Below are positions 6,398 to 17,304 of a stretch of 64,000 nucleotides of DNA, one piece after another. This stretch comes from Candidatus Omnitrophota bacterium. GTDB taxonomy: Bacteria > Omnitrophota > Gorgyraeia > Gygaellales > Profunditerraquicolaceae. The stretch spans positions 338,472 through 402,471 of the forward strand of contig JBAZKL010000002.1 in assembly GCA_041650835.1 (NCBI GenBank), given 5' to 3'. The notes under the pieces are model-generated. The model was not told where the DNA came from. It was given only the letters and a program-made list of their open reading frames with translations, and made no database searches. Both the position numbers and the translations under genes were made by a program. Each line of letters opens with the position of its first letter. Position 1 is the first letter of the stretch.

Positions 6398-6730
6398 ATG
6401 AGAGACCTATTATACCGGAACTTAACTTCACCAAATAAAAACCGAAGGATAATTACCAGTTCCGAAATAGCAGACAAAGAAGGTATCAGGACCGTAATAC
6501 AAAGACATTTCATTTATATTGTTAAAAGAATAAACGGTAAAATACCGCCTAAGCCAAAGCCGTATCTTTACGTTCTAAAAGAAAAGAGCCAAAAGAAACA
6601 GATGGAAAAATTCTTTTGCAGGATCAAAGGCGGGTTTTATATTATTAACAACGGCACTCCGGCACTCGTTCTTTTTACGCATTCACTTAAAATAAACCTG
6701 AGCGCCATAAATAAAACAACTCTTTGTTAA
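6398..6730 (+). CDS. hypothetical small basic protein (uncertain)
   Basis: Internal ATG 6398 of track ORF 6326..6730, with a GAGG Shine-Dalgarno 6 nt upstream. K/R-rich, no recognised motif. The track TTG start at 6326 lies inside a 10-bp stem-loop. Confidence 0.25.
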   Translation: MRDLLYRNLTSPNKNRRIITSSEIADKEGIRTVIQRHFIYIVKRINGKIPPKPKPYLYVLKEKSQKKQMEKFFCRIKGGFYIINNGTPALVLFTHSLKINLSAINKTTLC

Positions 6731-6880
6731 TAGGATAATTGCCACAGCCTATTACAAAAAAAAGGAAGACGCAGCTTGACAAAACAATAAAGTAATTGTA
6801 AACTTTATTAAATGATTTAAAATCTTTTGGGTCCGGTGTTCTCGATTATGGAGGTAATCGGGAAATGCCACGAAAATTCA

Positions 6881-6922
6881 AGCCGGATTGACGAAAAGGG
6901 TCAATCCGGCTTTTTGTTTTTT
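6881..6922 (+). terminator. rho-independent terminator
   Basis: agccggattgac-gaaaag-ggtcaatccggct stem-loop followed by tttttgtttttt. Confidence 0.55.
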
Positions 6923-6958: not shown

Positions 6959-6988
6959 TTGACAAATAAGGAGAAATGGTACTATAAT
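6959..6988 (+). promoter_or_regulatory. sigma-70-type promoter (TTGACA-N18-TATAAT) for the secreted-fibre operon
   Basis: Consensus hexamers at 6959-6964 and 6983-6988, ~18 nt upstream of ATG 7006. Confidence 0.45.
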
Positions 6989-7005
6989 AACACTTGGGTG
7001 GGACA

Positions 7006-8418
7006 ATGAATAATACATCGAAAAGAATATCCTTAAAATACCTGGTCATGCTGTGCGGCGCAATAGTCTTTTGTGCTTCTGCGGCTGCATTGGCCGCGGA
7101 TATCTTTGACCTCTCCTACAGCCTTACCGAAGGCGGTTTTCGTTTAGAATTCAACCAAGTCACCCCCTCAAGAGGCATTAAAGTCGATATTACCTCTAAT
7201 ATAGCCACCCGCTATGAAATTGAATTAGCAATTGTGCGGCCCTTAGAGAACCGGGATAAACCTAACACGCTCGTCAGAGATAACTTTTTCGTCAGAGGGA
7301 TCCGGGGAAGCAATCAATTCGGCGATTTTCGCCTGCCGCCAAGCGATTCAACCGTCAGGACATCTCAAACTATATATGTTTCCAACACAACGGGGAGCCC
7401 CGACAGCATTACCATGGTGCTTGGGGTAACCAATATTACAACCCTGCCCTCCGGGTATTACACGGGACAAATCAGTTTAACCCTCAGGCCTATCGGATCA
7501 GCCAGGTCGCACGTGGTCAAGTACATTGATATTTCCGCGACTATTCCTCAATCTCAAATAAAAGCTGAAGATAAAAGCGTCAAATTCTCTACGCTTTCAG
7601 GGAACAAGAGGATCACGCTGAATCCCAAGAAAAACGAAACCCAATCAGGCGATATTTTAGTTACCATAAACGGTACTTTCTCGCAGCAATTTAAACTGGT
7701 TCAAACTATACCGCAGCCCCTGGAATCCAAAGAAGGCAACAGGCTGAGCAATGACACAGTAAAATTCTCGGTAAAAGAAACAAGTATCGGATCAGCCGAA
7801 AGCTTAGAGAAAACCTTATCAACTGGAAGGCAAGTTCTATACACATCGCTTCCCGACGGAAAAGCTGACAAGACCTTTGTCATTACGTATTCCCTTAATG
7901 ATATTGCTAAACAGACCGCGGGGGATTATGCTACTAAGATCCAATTCTCCCTGGAAGAAATGGGCAATCTGACGAACCTTGACACTTTTACACTGGAGAT
8001 CAATAACGCACGGACATTCGACTTAACCATAGCGCCCCAGGACCAAATGGGTTCCCTGGATTTCCGTAACCTTAAACCCAATCAACCGCCAAAGCAAAGA
8101 GAAGTTACGGTAGAAATTAAATCAAACATAGGCAAGCGCTATCAAGTGAATCAAAAGCTCTTCGCGCCTCTTACGAACAGGGAAGGGCAAATAGTCCCTG
8201 GCGCGAATTTCACCCTAAAGACTGAAAGCATTTCAACAAAAGGGAGCTTACGCTACCCGCAATCTCAAGCGATAAAAGAAGGCGAGATGACCCTGCTTGT
8301 TTCAGACGCTGCAGGATCTCCCGACTCATTTAAAATAATCTACGAATTAAGTTTTCCTAAAGAGCTTAAAGCCGGCGACTATTCTACCAGGATCACTTAT
8401 TCCTTATCTGAGATCTAA
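7006..8418 (+). CDS. secreted protein with three tandem SCPU-like (spore-coat-U/archaic pilin-like) domains; candidate tip or adhesin subunit
   Basis: Signal peptide MNNTSKRISLKYLVMLCGAIVFCASAAALA. Three ~140-aa repeats each ending in the pilin-like strand SGYYTGQISLTL / AGDYATKIQFSL / AGDYSTRITYSL, with recurring GSPDS motifs. Confidence 0.5.
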   Translation: MNNTSKRISLKYLVMLCGAIVFCASAAALAADIFDLSYSLTEGGFRLEFNQVTPSRGIKVDITSNIATRYEIELAIVRPLENRDKPNTLVRDNFFVRGIRGSNQFGDFRLPPSDSTVRTSQTIYVSNTTGSPDSITMVLGVTNITTLPSGYYTGQISLTLRPIGSARSHVVKYIDISATIPQSQIKAEDKSVKFSTLSGNKRITLNPKKNETQSGDILVTINGTFSQQFKLVQTIPQPLESKEGNRLSNDTVKFSVKETSIGSAESLEKTLSTGRQVLYTSLPDGKADKTFVITYSLNDIAKQTAGDYATKIQFSLEEMGNLTNLDTFTLEINNARTFDLTIAPQDQMGSLDFRNLKPNQPPKQREVTVEIKSNIGKRYQVNQKLFAPLTNREGQIVPGANFTLKTESISTKGSLRYPQSQAIKEGEMTLLVSDAAGSPDSFKIIYELSFPKELKAGDYSTRITYSLSEI

Positions 8419-8489: not shown

Positions 8490-9188
8490 ATGAAAAAAAC
8501 AGTAGGGATCATGCTCGTAGTTCTCTGCGCGCTTGGAATTGCTACTTTGGCGTTTGCCGACATTGCCTTAAGTGTCAATGCCGTAGCTGATTCAGGCACT
8601 ACACTGGGAACGCACGCAATGCTCAGATGCACGGGTTATAATTACAATTCCGCCGGAGACCCGTGGACACAATGCACCAATCTTGGCGCTACAACAACGA
8701 TGAGTTTCGGGACCTTGACGCATTCGCTTAAGAATACCGCCGGTCAAACGACAGGAGACGCGGGTTGTTTCTATGGTGATTATTTCTTCATCATATACCT
8801 GTTCCCTGACTGCTGGGGCGGCAAAGGATACGACCTTAAGCAAACCACATCAAGCTTCTCAACCGAGATCAGGAACGCGGTTGTGAGGACTCCCGTATAT
8901 TCCAAAGACGACAAATATTCCGGAGCTGCTGCTCAAGGCGATTTGACCACTGCGGAAAAAGCCTTGAATCCTCAATTAGGAGTCGGCTATCTCGCACGGG
9001 ACTCTGCTGAAGGCAATAACCGGATATTAAAAGCCAAGAGGGCAAGGATCGTTCGCGCGGAATACGGCATTCCTCCGTTCCCGGGCACAGGTCAAACCAG
9101 GCCTACTGGCTGGGCTGCCATAGAAAAAACCACCTTGGCAGGCACCTATTCTGGCAGTGTTACAATTACATTGACAGAATGGCAATAA
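8490..9188 (+). CDS. SCPU-domain (spore coat protein U-like) secreted pilin-like subunit
   Basis: Signal peptide (…ATLAFA/DI), GGGGG-type RBS 9 nt upstream, C-terminal AGTYSGSVTITLTEWQ. The latter matches the G-x-Y-x-D/G-T-V-T-V-T C-terminal strand of archaic chaperone-usher pilins. Confidence 0.55.
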   Translation: MKKTVGIMLVVLCALGIATLAFADIALSVNAVADSGTTLGTHAMLRCTGYNYNSAGDPWTQCTNLGATTTMSFGTLTHSLKNTAGQTTGDAGCFYGDYFFIIYLFPDCWGGKGYDLKQTTSSFSTEIRNAVVRTPVYSKDDKYSGAAAQGDLTTAEKALNPQLGVGYLARDSAEGNNRILKAKRARIVRAEYGIPPFPGTGQTRPTGWAAIEKTTLAGTYSGSVTITLTEWQ

Positions 9189-9318
9189 TATTCTATAATA
9201 TTGCCTAATGGAACGACATGATCAAAAGGTAATAAAGTAATCTAACTTCAGGATACTAAAGGATTTATTCCTTTAGTATCCTGAGGTTTTTTAATTTCTG
9301 ACTAAAGGAGTGTCACGA

Positions 9319-10215
9319 GTGTTAAAGCGGATATTACTGCAATGTTTGGTGCCTGTCGTTACTTGTTGTTTCATAACAACAGCTTATGCTCAAGGGATAT
9401 CTTACAGCCTTGATAAATCTAAAGTCCGGGCGCTCCTGCCACCGGGAGGCTCACAATCAGGGGCCATTAAAGTATACAGCCAGACAAACGACACTTTAAA
9501 ATTTAAAGTTTATTTCGAGGACTGGATTTATGAAAAGATACAAGATGGCGCGAAAGAATTCATGCCGGCCAATACTTCAGCATTCACCTGCGCCACCTGG
9601 ATACAATTTAATCCGGCAGAATTCACCTTGACCCCTTACGGCATTCAAACAGTTAATTATGTTATTGCCGTTCCGGCTGACGCAAAAGGAAGCCACGTAG
9701 GAGTTATGTTCTTTGAAACCAATACGGCAGATAGCGCCGGCATTGAAATAGGCAAATCACAAGAAACCTTACAATCAGGCGTCGGCCTCGATATCCGGAT
9801 CGGCTCCTTATTCTATGTTGATGTTAAAGGAGCGATAAATCGAAGCGCTGAACTAAAGAAATTCTCCGTCACTAAAGATTCCAAAAACAAGAATTTTATC
9901 ATCTCCGCCGATCTGAAGAATACCGGAGATGCCGATATTACGACCGAAAGCACCTATCACATTACGGATAAGCAAGGCATGATTTACGCCCGGGGCAAGT
10001 TTAATCCTGTGTATACTCTGCCGGGAGACGAAGCGGAAATATCTTCTACCTGGAAAGATTCTATCCCCCAAGGGACATATAATATTGTTTTAACCGTCAA
10101 CCTGGGGAAAGCGATTGAGGAAGCAGGACTGGGCCGCGGCCCTATCATGCTCAAAGAAACAGAGATCGAAATCAACTCAAACGGAGAAGTTACAAAGATT
10201 GGAACACTCAGATAG
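9319..10215 (+). CDS. periplasmic PapD-like (Ig-fold) pilus chaperone-like protein
   Basis: GTG start with an AAGGAG RBS, then a signal peptide. The N-terminal stretch YSLDKSKVRALLP…IKVYSQTNDTLKFKVY parallels the PapD N-terminus (SLDRTRAVF…, conserved Arg). Two beta-sandwich-like halves. Confidence 0.45.
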   Translation: MLKRILLQCLVPVVTCCFITTAYAQGISYSLDKSKVRALLPPGGSQSGAIKVYSQTNDTLKFKVYFEDWIYEKIQDGAKEFMPANTSAFTCATWIQFNPAEFTLTPYGIQTVNYVIAVPADAKGSHVGVMFFETNTADSAGIEIGKSQETLQSGVGLDIRIGSLFYVDVKGAINRSAELKKFSVTKDSKNKNFIISADLKNTGDADITTESTYHITDKQGMIYARGKFNPVYTLPGDEAEISSTWKDSIPQGTYNIVLTVNLGKAIEEAGLGRGPIMLKETEIEINSNGEVTKIGTLR

Positions 10216-10234
10216 ACGGCTACCATACACATCA

Positions 10235-13039
10235 ATGCGTAGATTCTTTGTTTTTATCCTCATATCTGTTTTTTTACTCGCGAATTTCTTTCCCGCGTAC
10301 GCATATACCTATTTACCTGATTACCTCTGCCAACTGGGGCTGCAATTTTACCTTGAAGGAAGATACGATGACGCCCTCTATCAATTTAAGAACGCTCTCT
10401 TAGCGCAACCGGATAATCAACTCGCTTTAAAATACATCTCAATCATCCAGGAAGAACAAACCGGACAGCCGCAAGCTCAAGCGCAAATTCCCAGCTCCAC
10501 ATACCAGGGGCAATCAGAAGTTTTAAAGCTGCGCGAAACTCCCGGATTAATTACAAGAACTCCTTCTTCCGGCGTAAACGCCGAGTATAACGGTCTGCCT
10601 CAAGCACCCCAAAAGGGGTACACACCTGAATTTGACGCTTCAAAAGTAAGTACGGAAAAAACCTACGCACCCGGCCTTGTCGTTTTGGATGAGACATTCA
10701 AAGACATCCCTAAACCTATCGAGTTGGAACAAAACCGAAGCATCATTATCAGGGGCAGCAACATTCAAAGATTCTTAGCCACACAGCCCGATATAATCAC
10801 CGTTACCAGAAGCAATGCCGATGAAATAGTAGTAACCGGAAAAGAAGTCGGATATTCATATGTGCATGTTTGGGATAATACTGACCGTTGGACAGTTGAC
10901 TTATTAGGCATATTTCCCAAGCCTGAAGCGCCTACCTTTGAAGAATTACGCAGGCAAGAGGAAGAATTGAACCAAAGCTTTAAATGGTATTATTCCATTG
11001 ATTGGGCATCTTTTGAAACAGGCAGAAGGTTACGAAAAGATGCTTTAAACAGGACATCCTATGCCTGGACCCACAGCCTGGGAGTGACCGGCCAAACACC
11101 GTATGGCTTCTTCGACTCTTCAATGACCGCGCGGTCTAACTCTCTGAATACCGACCTCACCTACTATACCATCGGGTTAACCAACGGCCAATACGGGATC
11201 TTAAAGAATTTTTCTCTGCGCGCCTTTGATTATTCCCTGCCATTCGCGAACCTGGCTTTTTCCGGAGCTCAATTGCGCGGTGTCACCTTTAACACCCCTC
11301 TTTTTAATAAAAAACTCGATTATACCCTGTTCTGGGGAAGAGAAGGAGGCGGACGTTACGGCAATTTATCGCCGAGTTTAAGTAAAACCAAGAACTCTTT
11401 TCTAGAAGGCGCCAATGTCAGCTTTACCCCGACAAAGCATCAAAACTATGCATTTACGGTAGTGCGCGGGCACGGTAGAGACAGGGAAGAAGACTTAAAC
11501 CCCTACGGATATGACCTGTATAACACCTGGAGCTTTGATAAATGGGGGGCACGCTACGAAATCGCCCATGATTCGGAAACTTTTGCCCATGTTCTGGAAA
11601 CTCATCAGAAATGGTCGTTGGCAAACACAAGTATTTCATTCAGGGACGTGGATACTAACTTCAAGAGCATTACCGGAAACGGCTGGGCGCAAGGCCAGAT
11701 CGGTTCCCTCATGAGCATAAATTATCAACCCGATGAATTATGGAATACTTACGCGAGCCTGGATATTTACAGAGAAAGGCTCTACCCTGCAGAAGAAAAA
11801 CCAAAGCGCCTGAACGAAGATCTTAATTTTAACACTACGTACCAAATGAATCCCGATACCAGTTTTAATTTCTCGTATTCCTTTCAAAACGACCTGGGCA
11901 AGTTAGCGCAAAGCCGCTACATTTCGACGAATTTAGGGGTCACGCAAAAAATGTACTTCCTGAAAGATATGTACGGATTCGCTAATTATTACCATCAGAT
12001 CAGCCAGAATTTTTCTTCACCGGCTTCCGACTACGTAAATGACAGGTTCTTCGCGGGTATCCGTTTTAATTTAATCGACGAGCTTTACTTTTACGCAAAT
12101 AAAGAAATAAATTTATTGAAAGAAGATTTCTCGGGCGTACACTATCATCCTCACTCGACTGAAACCGGCGTTGATTACTCAAGTAAGATCGGCAGCTCTC
12201 CTTTTTACGGGAACATGCGATTTTATTACCGTGATGAAGAAGCGGCCGACGCTTCGTTAGGTTTTCTTTCAGGCGAGGATTCGATCGAAGGCCACCTTGA
12301 ACTTACCTACCGGGCCAATGATAACAATGAAATATACGCCGCAACGACAGTACGCAATGTGTGGGCGGATAAAGAAACAGTAGAGAAACGTATTGAAGCG
12401 AATTTTAACGTCGGTATGCGCTGCATGTGGGATACAAACTACCGCTGGGAAACAGTAGGCAATATTGAAGGATACGTATTCAAGGATGAAAACTCCGACG
12501 GCTTAAAACAGAAGAATGAAGCTCCCGTAAGTGAAGCAAAAATATGGCTCGGGAACCAAGACTATACGACGACCGACGTTTTCGGTTATTTCAACTTCAG
12601 GAAGATCAAGGCGCGTAAAGCGTACGTGAGCTTTGATACTTCAAGCTTGCCGCCGGGTTTTGTCTTGACCGTCCCGGTAAACCAGGAAGCAGTTCTTTCA
12701 CAACATCGGATAACTCGAATAGATTTCGGGATCATTTCACGCGCGGAAGTATCGGGGATGGTCTTTGAGGACACCGATAATGACGGGAAATACACGCTTT
12801 CTAAAGATAAAGGAATAACAGGCGCGGTCATTACCCTGGAGAACGGTAAACAATTAACCACCGATAACACAGGTAAATTCTACTTCCCCAATGTCAGCAC
12901 GGGAAAACACACTATCAGCCTCGACCTCAACAGCCTGCCTATCTACTACCTTCCGAAATCAGCGATCACCCATGACTTCGAACTTTTTGAAGGTTCCACC
13001 TATATCTATAATATCCCCATTAAAAGGATCCAGGAGTAG
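10235..13039 (+). CDS. outer-membrane protein: TPR + secretin-N/'pilus formation N-terminal'-like domain + large Tyr/Asn-rich beta-barrel + 2x Cna-B/SdrD-B-like Ig domains; candidate usher analogue
   Basis: Signal peptide MRRFFVFILISVFLLANFFPAYA. TPR (LQFYLEGRYDDALYQFKNALLAQPDN). SIIIRGSNIQRFLATQPDIITVTRSNADEIVVTGKEVGYSYVHVWD resembles the CpaC/RcpA N-domain. Two C-terminal repeats GxVFxDxxNDGKx…TDxxGxFxF. No secretin P.L..IP..G.LF signature. Confidence 0.5.
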   Translation: MRRFFVFILISVFLLANFFPAYAYTYLPDYLCQLGLQFYLEGRYDDALYQFKNALLAQPDNQLALKYISIIQEEQTGQPQAQAQIPSSTYQGQSEVLKLRETPGLITRTPSSGVNAEYNGLPQAPQKGYTPEFDASKVSTEKTYAPGLVVLDETFKDIPKPIELEQNRSIIIRGSNIQRFLATQPDIITVTRSNADEIVVTGKEVGYSYVHVWDNTDRWTVDLLGIFPKPEAPTFEELRRQEEELNQSFKWYYSIDWASFETGRRLRKDALNRTSYAWTHSLGVTGQTPYGFFDSSMTARSNSLNTDLTYYTIGLTNGQYGILKNFSLRAFDYSLPFANLAFSGAQLRGVTFNTPLFNKKLDYTLFWGREGGGRYGNLSPSLSKTKNSFLEGANVSFTPTKHQNYAFTVVRGHGRDREEDLNPYGYDLYNTWSFDKWGARYEIAHDSETFAHVLETHQKWSLANTSISFRDVDTNFKSITGNGWAQGQIGSLMSINYQPDELWNTYASLDIYRERLYPAEEKPKRLNEDLNFNTTYQMNPDTSFNFSYSFQNDLGKLAQSRYISTNLGVTQKMYFLKDMYGFANYYHQISQNFSSPASDYVNDRFFAGIRFNLIDELYFYANKEINLLKEDFSGVHYHPHSTETGVDYSSKIGSSPFYGNMRFYYRDEEAADASLGFLSGEDSIEGHLELTYRANDNNEIYAATTVRNVWADKETVEKRIEANFNVGMRCMWDTNYRWETVGNIEGYVFKDENSDGLKQKNEAPVSEAKIWLGNQDYTTTDVFGYFNFRKIKARKAYVSFDTSSLPPGFVLTVPVNQEAVLSQHRITRIDFGIISRAEVSGMVFEDTDNDGKYTLSKDKGITGAVITLENGKQLTTDNTGKFYFPNVSTGKHTISLDLNSLPIYYLPKSAITHDFELFEGSTYIYNIPIKRIQE

Positions 13040-14052: not shown

Positions 14053-17000
14053 TTATTCCAGGTATACATCAAGAGCGGTTATCTGACGGTTACGCACTCC
14101 TTGAGCGTACGCAGCAGGGAGCGTGTCGGAATTGAGAATGACCGGATGAGCCGATTCATCTTTAAAGCTGATCCTTTTAACCGACACACCGCTTTTCCCA
14201 AAAGTATCTTTCTTTTTCTGATTATGATAGGTTACCACGACAGAACTTAAGAAATGGAACATATAAAAACCTTTTTTATCAAATAGCCAGCCGGGCAGCA
14301 CCGGCTTTACTCTTAATTGCAGTTGTCCGTCCTCACCGAGAAAGAAGGGGGTATGCCCTATATTCATGATCAACCACATATTAATGAATTCAACGGTCGA
14401 ACCCGAAAGGCGTGCGACAAATCCATTGCCGTGCAATTTTTTTTCCGGAAAAGCGCTGCTGACAATAAAGGAAGAATTCTCTAAAATGCTTCTTCCGTAA
14501 CACTGAGGGTCTTGGAAAGGGATAAGCACATTCTTAAATTCCTCAAAATATTCTTTATACAAACCGCGCTTTAAAAGCTCAAGGATATATTTATACTCCA
14601 TATGCAGCCATATCGATTCATTTTCCAGCCACCCGGGAGTGAAAATACGGCACCTGCCGATCTCTTCAGGCATATCCATGAGCGACGCGGTAACTTTATA
14701 CATCTTAAGCTTTTTGTCATAGAGCGGGCTCTTTCTTGTCGCCTGATACAACGATTGAGCGCTCAGGCGATCTTCACTGAGCCGCAGCGCGTGCATATGC
14801 CCTTCAAGAAAAAGAGGAAGGGGCTTTTGTCGGAATTTGGTCGCTCGAACATAGGGTTTCTCTAAAGGCTCATACGCGGTGACCTCATTAATAAAATAGG
14901 ACAAATAGGTGCCGGACTTTTTGTCAAACGCTTTGGCAATCCCCAGATCAAGCTTCGTTTGAGCCTTTTTAAGAATAGTGAGTGCTTCCTGAGAGCTCAT
15001 TTCCAGCTCTTTACCGCTCAAACCGGATTTTGTTTTCTCCCGGTACGCCTCTTTCAGCGAATTACTGGCATCCCAATAAGTAAAGTCGCCTTCACTGCCG
15101 CCGGCTATCGACTGATCGATCAATCCTCCAAGTTTAACAAAAAAATCAAGGATATCCTCATCGACCCTGACCGATTGCACACCGGCAGCGGTCATGGCCT
15201 TCATCATAAAAAGCAGCAATCGTTTTAATTCAAATGTCTCGCACAGCGAAGAGCCGAAAAGAGCAGGCAGGCCGTTTAACGCGTCAAACCAGTTAGGTTT
15301 ATTTGCCTCCATAGCAACGCCCACGCCGAAAGGATCCAGGCTCGACATCTTATTAACCATAAGGCAGAACAGCTTATTGATCAATGTCGTTTTATAGACA
15401 TCACCCGTCCCGTATGCAGCGCGGACCACATGCGCCTCAGTTGCCCTCCGCATGATCATATCCTTCTTCTCAAGGTCAAGTGAGACCGAATGAAATTGAC
15501 GCACGCTATCTTTATGCAAAACATATTTCTTATTGCGCGGGTTAACAACTTCGGCATTATCAAAAAAGCTGAATTGCCTGCTTTCAAATACGATCTCCTT
15601 CAACTTCTCGGGGTACACTCCGAGATAACTTTCCAGCAGGTCCAGATTATAGGTCCAATGATCGGTCCAGAAGCCTTCTACGTGTTCAGCTTCCTGGTTT
15701 TTACTGGAGTGGGCCAAAAGGATATTCAAGAACTGGTCATTTGAAACGTTTAACTTGACGCCTTGAGCTTCCAGAAAAAAGACCAATTCTCCCGGGCTAA
15801 AAGGTTGGGTTAAAAAAGAAAGCAAAAGTTCCGTGTCCCGGGCTGACATCAGGCTCAGTAACACATCTTTCAAGACGAGAGGGTCTTTCATCACAAATCT
15901 ATCACCCTTAACCACTAAAGGATTATAACCGTCTGTCTGCAATAAATTAAAGAAAGTAACGATATTTTCTTCCCTAATATTAGGATTAAACCAGACATCG
16001 CAACGCCTGTTCTGGTTCACATCGCGGTAATTACCGTTACCTTGCGAAAAATAGGTCGGCTGGATCGAGAAACGGTTGTAATCCCGCTCTAAGTCTCCAT
16101 GCTTACGGGAATAAAGATAGAAAACCGCGGCGCGATATTCCGGCTTCATAGGCTTACGGGCGAACTGAGGAGAAACAAAAATAGTAGGGTAGCCGCCCCG
16201 CATAATATTATCAAGGTAGGTCTGGCGCACATAAAGATCAAATTCCTTCCGGGCGCTTTTAGTGTTGATATTCACCTCTAATTCTTCTATCGTGCTCTTA
16301 TTCTCTATTTTTTTCTTTTCGAGATATCCTGACGCCGTAATCCTGCCGACAGAAGCATTCAATATACCCAGGTTACGCATATTCCCGGCTACGCAGTGAA
16401 AAGTCTTACCAGCCCCCGCAGGCAATCTGAAAGATAAGGGAATAAAAGCCGAAGGTGTTTTACTGCGCAAGCTCATGACGGCCGCCGGACGGAATTTCCT
16501 ATTATCAACAAAAGCCCGCGGATAAGAAAAATCATTCTCAGTGCCGAAAACAGATTCCGGGTCGACTAAAGGAGTAATGACCTGAGGGGAACCTTTTTCA
16601 TAGTGAAAACCTAAATAAAAATTGCCTTGCTCGATATGGACCACTTCTGGCCTATCGGCAGGATCAACGCTTAATTTATAAAAAGGTACGCCTCGTTTTA
16701 AGTTTTCGACAACCATCCAGGCTTCGATTGTCCGGCTCATTTTCTTTAAAAAGAAATTATTGACGCCGAAAGGGACGACTTGAGGCAGGCCGTCGACAAG
16801 TTCGATCTCTTTGGCTGACCTTGAAAGGTTCGCAACAGTCACATTCCTCACAAGCCCCGCGTAAGAATCTTGAGGGACCGTAAAATAATCCACCGAGATA
16901 CTTAATCCCAAAGTCCTATTGATCTCCTCCAATCTCAAGCCATATGAGGTAATGAACATCTTATTGGACACAAGGTATCGTTCATTAACGAATCCTGGCC

Positions 17001-17304
17001 GGAATGGTTCGTACATCCTGAAGCTATTTTTAGTCATAACTTTCAGAAATGTCCGGAACCCGTGAGTGAATACTGTTTCCCACGCTTTATTTGCAGGCTG
17101 GAATTCAAGTATTGAGTTATCTTTATCTTTAATACCGAAGCTGCAGATCGCCTGGCCGCGATTGACATAAAAGGCCCACATCGGAATGCCATACTTACCC
17201 GCGATGCCGGGGAAGAAATTAGCAAACGGCTTGGCAAGATTATAGTTTTCTATGACAAATTCATGGTCAGCGTTGAGATAATATTTTGGTTTGGCTGCAC
17301 TCAT
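14053..17304 (-). CDS. large (1083 aa) glycoside hydrolase/glycan phosphorylase-like protein, (alpha/alpha)6-barrel type, family unresolved
   Basis: Uninterrupted 3.25-kb ORF with a GGAG RBS. The N-terminal beta-sandwich-like region (YYLNADHEFVIENY…NRGQAICSFG) resembles GH94/GH65-type phosphorylase N-termini. The C-terminal W/H/Y-rich helices (WLENESIWLHMEYKYILELL) resemble the same families. Family call is tentative. Confidence 0.5.
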   Translation of the reverse strand: MSAAKPKYYLNADHEFVIENYNLAKPFANFFPGIAGKYGIPMWAFYVNRGQAICSFGIKDKDNSILEFQPANKAWETVFTHGFRTFLKVMTKNSFRMYEPFRPGFVNERYLVSNKMFITSYGLRLEEINRTLGLSISVDYFTVPQDSYAGLVRNVTVANLSRSAKEIELVDGLPQVVPFGVNNFFLKKMSRTIEAWMVVENLKRGVPFYKLSVDPADRPEVVHIEQGNFYLGFHYEKGSPQVITPLVDPESVFGTENDFSYPRAFVDNRKFRPAAVMSLRSKTPSAFIPLSFRLPAGAGKTFHCVAGNMRNLGILNASVGRITASGYLEKKKIENKSTIEELEVNINTKSARKEFDLYVRQTYLDNIMRGGYPTIFVSPQFARKPMKPEYRAAVFYLYSRKHGDLERDYNRFSIQPTYFSQGNGNYRDVNQNRRCDVWFNPNIREENIVTFFNLLQTDGYNPLVVKGDRFVMKDPLVLKDVLLSLMSARDTELLLSFLTQPFSPGELVFFLEAQGVKLNVSNDQFLNILLAHSSKNQEAEHVEGFWTDHWTYNLDLLESYLGVYPEKLKEIVFESRQFSFFDNAEVVNPRNKKYVLHKDSVRQFHSVSLDLEKKDMIMRRATEAHVVRAAYGTGDVYKTTLINKLFCLMVNKMSSLDPFGVGVAMEANKPNWFDALNGLPALFGSSLCETFELKRLLLFMMKAMTAAGVQSVRVDEDILDFFVKLGGLIDQSIAGGSEGDFTYWDASNSLKEAYREKTKSGLSGKELEMSSQEALTILKKAQTKLDLGIAKAFDKKSGTYLSYFINEVTAYEPLEKPYVRATKFRQKPLPLFLEGHMHALRLSEDRLSAQSLYQATRKSPLYDKKLKMYKVTASLMDMPEEIGRCRIFTPGWLENESIWLHMEYKYILELLKRGLYKEYFEEFKNVLIPFQDPQCYGRSILENSSFIVSSAFPEKKLHGNGFVARLSGSTVEFINMWLIMNIGHTPFFLGEDGQLQLRVKPVLPGWLFDKKGFYMFHFLSSVVVTYHNQKKKDTFGKSGVSVKRISFKDESAHPVILNSDTLPAAYAQGVRNRQITALDVYLE

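Follow-up and report, generated by a model that had tools for sequence, protein, structure and literature searches.

Chaperone-usher pili are the textbook model of energy-independent protein polymerization and secretion across the outer membrane. Periplasmic chaperones such as PapD and FimC hold a pilus subunit through a conserved anchoring arginine (Arg8), and pilins end in a C-terminal strand of alternating hydrophobic residues with a glycine ~14 residues from the end. In the usher, a plug domain of ~80 aa is inserted between strands 6 and 7 of a 24-stranded barrel and, to our knowledge, all characterized ushers belong to a single sequence family with such a 24-stranded, plug-gated barrel. 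Here, we describe a four-gene cassette (A-D) in a 64,000-nucleotide stretch of DNA from a Candidatus Omnitrophota bacterium (the window), in which gene D probably encodes the FimD/PapC-equivalent outer-membrane assembly and secretion platform of a very divergent chaperone-usher-type surface-fiber system. The four genes are at present annotated as hypothetical or with generic domain names, and searches of the literature on Omnitrophota, PF13629 barrel proteins, and novel ushers found no description of this system, which appears to be confined to Omnitrophota and to recur across the phylum.

Gene D (10235..13039, plus strand), the candidate usher equivalent of the outer membrane, runs from an ATG at 10235 to a stop codon that ends at 13039 and encodes a secreted protein of 934 aa. 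More than 120 full-length homologs with 41-86% identity, together with 72 related loci in species-representative genomes, rule out a chance ORF: D is a real protein. Its N-terminus, MRRFFVFILISVFLLANFFPAYA followed by YTY, is signal-peptide-like and, read from the sequence, spans residues 1-23 (10235..10303, +) with cleavage after AYA. About two TPR motifs follow (residues ~28-76; 10316..10462, +), where TPR_2 matched residues 28-61 weakly from the single sequence (E = 0.0012) and the family profile matched TPR proteins in a PDB profile search with E = 6e-31. A Q/P-rich disordered linker (residues 77-143, pLDDT <50) then leads to a beta-rich, putatively periplasmic domain (residues ~147-226; 10673..10912, +), an N-domain like that of RcpA and CpaC (pil_N type). 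Within it, residues 161-218 score 27.6 bits against the Pfam family T2SS-T3SS_pil_N (PF13629), for which the curated cutoff is 23, and most of 120 homologs have PF13629 in their precomputed Pfam lists. Residues ~230-740 gave no Pfam match and hold the predicted transmembrane beta-barrel (residues 250-733; 10982..12433, +), and the protein ends in two SdrD_B/transthyretin-like beta-sandwiches (residues 741-835 and 838-931; 12455..13027, +). Both of these carry a DxNxDG motif; two stretches of D match SdrD_B (PF17210; 52.6 bits, E = 6e-14), PF13620 matches the same domains, and SdrD is among their PDB matches in both profile and fold searches. Hence, the CpaC/RcpA-type N-domain and the two SdrD-B-like repeats that the original prediction had read from the letters were recovered, and all the peptides that it quoted are present in the translation.

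Using AlphaFold2 on a 59-sequence alignment, we obtained a model of D with a mean pLDDT of 82.6 (above 90 for most of the middle region and ~90 in the strands of the N-domain), in which the N-domain is followed by 26 strands and the two beta-sandwiches. DSSP assigned 26 long beta-strands of 9-17 aa each to residues 250-733, connected by turns of 2-5 aa that alternate with generally longer loops of 3-18 aa (most of at least 6 aa), an alternation that, in the model, resembles that of a transmembrane barrel. The even number of strands would bring both ends of the barrel to the same side of the membrane. The last strand, NVGMRCMW, is similar to the BAM beta-signal, and a loop within the barrel region, FWGREGGGRYGNLSP (residues 366-380), is highly conserved. 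No insertion resembling the ~80-aa plug is apparent in the model, where the alternation of turns and generally longer loops continues throughout. Mean-field DCA on 175 D sequences (Meff 144), aimed at distinguishing strands 8-13 as an inserted plug from strands 8-13 as part of the barrel, recovered several hairpins and was too noisy for topology, after an earlier run that had been dominated by a gap artifact. Some odd pairs ranked at the top of this analysis (371/372 with 656, and 303 with 376), probably due to phylogeny. Upon searching the PDB with Foldseek, the 11 best matches to D were exclusively full-length FimD or PapC (E = 1.5e-20 to 4.4e-13 over 760-817 aligned columns), with barrel-only FimD at E = 9e-11, the best non-usher barrels at E = 4e-8 or worse, and TM-scores that were low for D's fold matches (0.3-0.4). 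A large beta-barrel is therefore predicted for the ~500-aa region where one had been anticipated, and the suggestion that the layout mirrors an usher agrees with the modeled succession of N-domain, barrel, and two C-terminal beta-sandwiches, which is structurally closest to solved ushers.

At the level of sequence, D gave no Pfam match to Usher (PF00577) or Secretin at E ≤ 1, both families were absent from the precomputed Pfam lists of the 120 homologs, and a PDB profile search with the D family found no match to an usher or secretin domain. In hhalign, a 175-sequence alignment of the D family reached a probability of 0.6% against seven E. coli ushers, and another alignment of the family reached 0.5% against FimD. 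The PapC_N and PapC_C domain types are absent from D, whose N-domain is instead assigned by Pfam to PF13629 and whose C-domains are assigned to PF17210/PF13620. These results bear out the initial view that D has neither a secretin C-domain nor apparent homology to ushers.

We found the gene immediately upstream to encode a PapD-like chaperone. Gene C (9310..10215, +) specifies a periplasmic two-domain protein of 301 aa, the AlphaFold2 model of which (pLDDT 84.5, pTM 0.71) has two Ig-like domains whose folds can be superposed on those of fimbrial chaperones. Its F1-G1-like loop (residues ~138-162) is long and disordered and precedes a strand with alternating hydrophobic residues. Compared with eight E. 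coli chaperones in hhalign, C reached a probability of 90.5% (E = 1.4e-6, 166 columns), and its family profile matched EcpB among PDB sequences (E = 0.0026); PapD_N and PapD_C found no Pfam match at E ≤ 1 in 15 C members. R40 of C is aligned with Arg8 of FimC, this position being R or K in 15/15 aligned members, and the putative G1 strand carries a conserved R/K that is not exactly aligned with Lys112.

Two further genes of the cassette encode secreted proteins that are candidate subunits. Gene A (6994..8418, +; translation may in fact start from the ATG at 7006) encodes 474 aa and is a candidate tip or pre-linked fiber subunit, consisting of three tandem homologous pilin-sized domains of ~140 aa that each end in aGxYxGxIxxxL, with no extra strand at the mature N-terminus. 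A BLAST self-comparison missed these repeats, which hhalign detected domain against domain with probabilities of 98.9-99.7%. Clustered at 50% identity, the A family comprises 388 clusters, nearly every one of which has three matched stretches, and a three-domain profile search of representatives returned family members only. The A family profile matched the CfaE-CfaB pilin fusion 3f83 with E = 9e-5, a match that was not reproduced with single-domain profiles, and PDB profile searches with mixed A domains or with domain 2 alone gave no match. Gene B (8490..9188, +; 232 aa), the candidate polymerizing (major) subunit, has the mature N-terminus DIALSVNAVA with alternating hydrophobic residues, contains four conserved cysteines, and varies more than any other gene in the cassette, with HMM scores that range widely across loci and a duplication in some of them. 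Neither A nor B matched any Pfam family, pilin families included, and a profile search with B found no PDB sequence match. Upon aligning B with the A domains in hhalign, only the C-terminal motif was found in common, namely the aGxYxGxIxxxL strand, which is conserved across both families. A ends in AGDYSTRITYSLSEI with a glycine at -14 and B in AGTYSGSVTITLTEWQ with a glycine at -15 and a penultimate tryptophan; both ends thus show the hydrophobic alternation and glycine position of a pilin C-terminal strand.

The order A-(B)-C-D is kept in most of the 72 related loci, nearly all of which are labeled Omnitrophota. In essentially every locus with upstream DNA, C lies directly upstream of D, the two genes abutting or overlapping by 1-8 nt, while A precedes them in most loci, B varies from locus to locus, and, in a divergent clade (L075/L076), four pilin-sized secreted ORFs precede C and D. 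D hence has the gene context of an usher, sharing an operon with genes for a PapD-like chaperone and for candidate secreted subunits, and the usher-like idea is strengthened by the FimD/PapC fold matches, the adjacent chaperone, and the secreted pilin-like proteins upstream. Immediately 5' of A, a sigma-70 consensus (6959..6988, +; TTGACA, an 18-nt spacer, and TATAAT, 12/12) is a candidate promoter of the cassette, judging from the consensus match. A terminator-like hairpin (6880..6912, +; 13-bp stem and T-run) separates the cassette from a small cytoplasmic ORF (6398..6730, +; ~110 aa from MRDLLYRNL), which gave no Pfam match, has homologs of ~109-116 aa at the same position in the related loci L002-L004, and is possibly a regulator, its membership in the cassette being uncertain. 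Between the subunit genes and C lies a stem-loop (9244..9288, +) with a perfect 20-bp stem, a U-tract, and a folding z-score of -6.2. Likewise, ~20/57 related loci have their most stable 60-nt fold (dG of -20 kcal/mol or lower) close upstream of C, with unrelated sequences. This stem-loop is a candidate partial terminator or mRNA-stabilizing hairpin that would set the ratio of subunits to machinery. The cassette is surrounded by conserved housekeeping genes, lepA-lepB-pgsA-plsY on one side and gatCAB on the other, and has a conserved neighbor, gene F (14053-17304, 1083 aa), on the strand opposite to D.

We propose that A and B would be exported by Sec and captured in the periplasm by C through their common C-terminal strand, the basic residue equivalent to FimC Arg8 anchoring the captured subunit. 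The chaperone-subunit complexes would dock on the putatively periplasmic domains of D, namely the pil_N domain, which would stand in for the usher NTD, and the two beta-sandwiches, which would stand in for CTD1 and CTD2. From there, the subunits would pass outward through the ~26-stranded barrel as they become joined, presumably by donor-strand exchange. As A has no free N-terminal strand and its three domains are pre-linked, it would be the first subunit to enter and would become the distal tip of the putative fiber, with B polymerizing beneath. D may be a hyper-diverged usher. It is also conceivable, if rather doubtful, that D was assembled independently, its N-domain being of the Tad secretin type, its ~26-stranded barrel new and lacking a plug, and its C-domains transthyretin-like. 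In that case, D would have come to resemble an usher in layout by convergence, displacing a canonical usher next to a true PapD-like chaperone, and would work with A as a natural tri-pilin tip that is self-complemented in cis. Such a replacement would constitute a second, nonhomologous solution to ATP-independent fiber assembly across the outer membrane.

Other readings of the cassette fared less well. C and D may export A and B into a capsule-like or sheath-like polymer or an envelope layer and form no pilus, for which the Caf1 F1 capsule of Yersinia and chaperone-usher-assembled spore coats offer comparisons. The housekeeping neighborhood and the 72 related loci are more like those of a core envelope component than of an accessory adhesin island, and the F1-G1-like loop of C recalls long-loop (FGL) chaperones, which assemble thin polyadhesive or capsular fibers; however, a strand-less, tri-domain, tip-like A next to a variable B resembles a tip-plus-shaft organization, and we consider a non-pilus product unlikely. 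It is less probable still, and in our view improbable, that D is an export or import channel for polymers or solutes that is unrelated to A-C, either of the exopolysaccharide porin type and possibly linked to F, or a general large barrel (LptD, MtrB, or TonB-dependent-like). Exopolysaccharide porins combine a long TPR array with a C-terminal barrel of 16-18 strands and synthase genes in the operon. Although the N-terminal TPR and the conserved neighbor F would suit such a channel, D has only about two TPR motifs and a model of 26 strands followed by two further domains, which led us to reject PgaA, BcsC, PelB, and AlgE as counterparts; the cassette contains no synthase genes, and F is encoded on the opposite strand, without a signal peptide or a Pfam match. 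LptD was rejected because D has neither an OstA/LptD signature in Pfam nor an N-terminal jellyroll, and a TonB-dependent transporter because Pfam found no TonB-plug signature. Moreover, ushers lead all such barrels in the Foldseek ranking by 5 or more orders of magnitude, and the start and stop codons of C and D abut or overlap in virtually all loci, tying D to the chaperone. That D is a component of the outer membrane related to secretins or associated with Tad/type IV pili is very improbable: the PF13629 match, the database name of D ('pilus assembly protein N-terminal domain-containing protein'), a weak PDB profile match of the N-domain to the N-terminus of 8jvb ('Type II and III secretion system protein', E = 0.33), and a faint type_IV_pilW match in the TPR region (E = 0.035) point that way, but we rejected D as a secretin since, beside its pil_N domain, no secretin domain was found by Pfam, by PDB profile, or among the listed fold-search matches, its predicted monomeric, many-stranded barrel is unlike the secretin fold, neither the cassette nor the other window ORFs scanned contain Tad, Flp, or type IV pilus genes, and its conserved partner is a PapD-like chaperone.

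Overall, A-D are probably a highly divergent set of pilus-assembly genes, not described before and common to the uncultured phylum Omnitrophota, one that searches with usher-family profiles probably missed because D gives no Usher match. The cassette pairs a recognizable PapD-like chaperone with a partner that has the domain order of an usher and, at the same time, other building blocks, another predicted strand number, and no obvious plug. As the usher order is kept with different parts, D would offer a natural experiment for learning which features of an usher are indispensable to the catalysis of subunit exchange and to gating. A-D also point to a candidate surface structure that is conserved and so far unannotated in Omnitrophota, ultra-small and probably host-dependent bacteria (PMC10066038) in which an attachment apparatus would be of ecological interest.

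Compared to FimD and PapC, D shows no detectable sequence homology, has a predicted barrel of ~26 instead of 24 strands without an evident plug insertion, replaces the PapC_N-type N-domain by PF13629 of the Tad secretin type and the PapC_C-type C-domains by SdrD_B/transthyretin-like ones, and carries an additional N-terminal TPR and a ~65-aa disordered linker. It has the pil_N family in common with the N-termini of the RcpA/CpaC secretins of Tad (Flp) pili, which form a multimeric secretin ring, whereas D is a predicted monomeric barrel that has no secretin domain and lies away from Tad genes. LptD and MtrB are 26-stranded barrels as well, yet D has no OstA jellyroll, LptE- or MtrA-type partner, or sequence similarity to them, and its flanking domains and operon differ from theirs. 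For C, the WxL-interacting proteins (WxLIP) of Enterococcus belong to a Gram-positive wall complex, while C is paired with an outer-membrane barrel and can be aligned to the fimbrial chaperones of Gram-negative bacteria across its two domains and at the profile level. With CFA/I (chaperone CfaA, major pilin CfaB, usher CfaC, and tip adhesin CfaE) and Ecp, the identities are only ~10-13%, the gene order differs from that of the cassette, and D is not homologous by sequence to CfaC or EcpC; the CFA/I tip joins an adhesin to a pilin, whereas A is a natural tandem of three domains.

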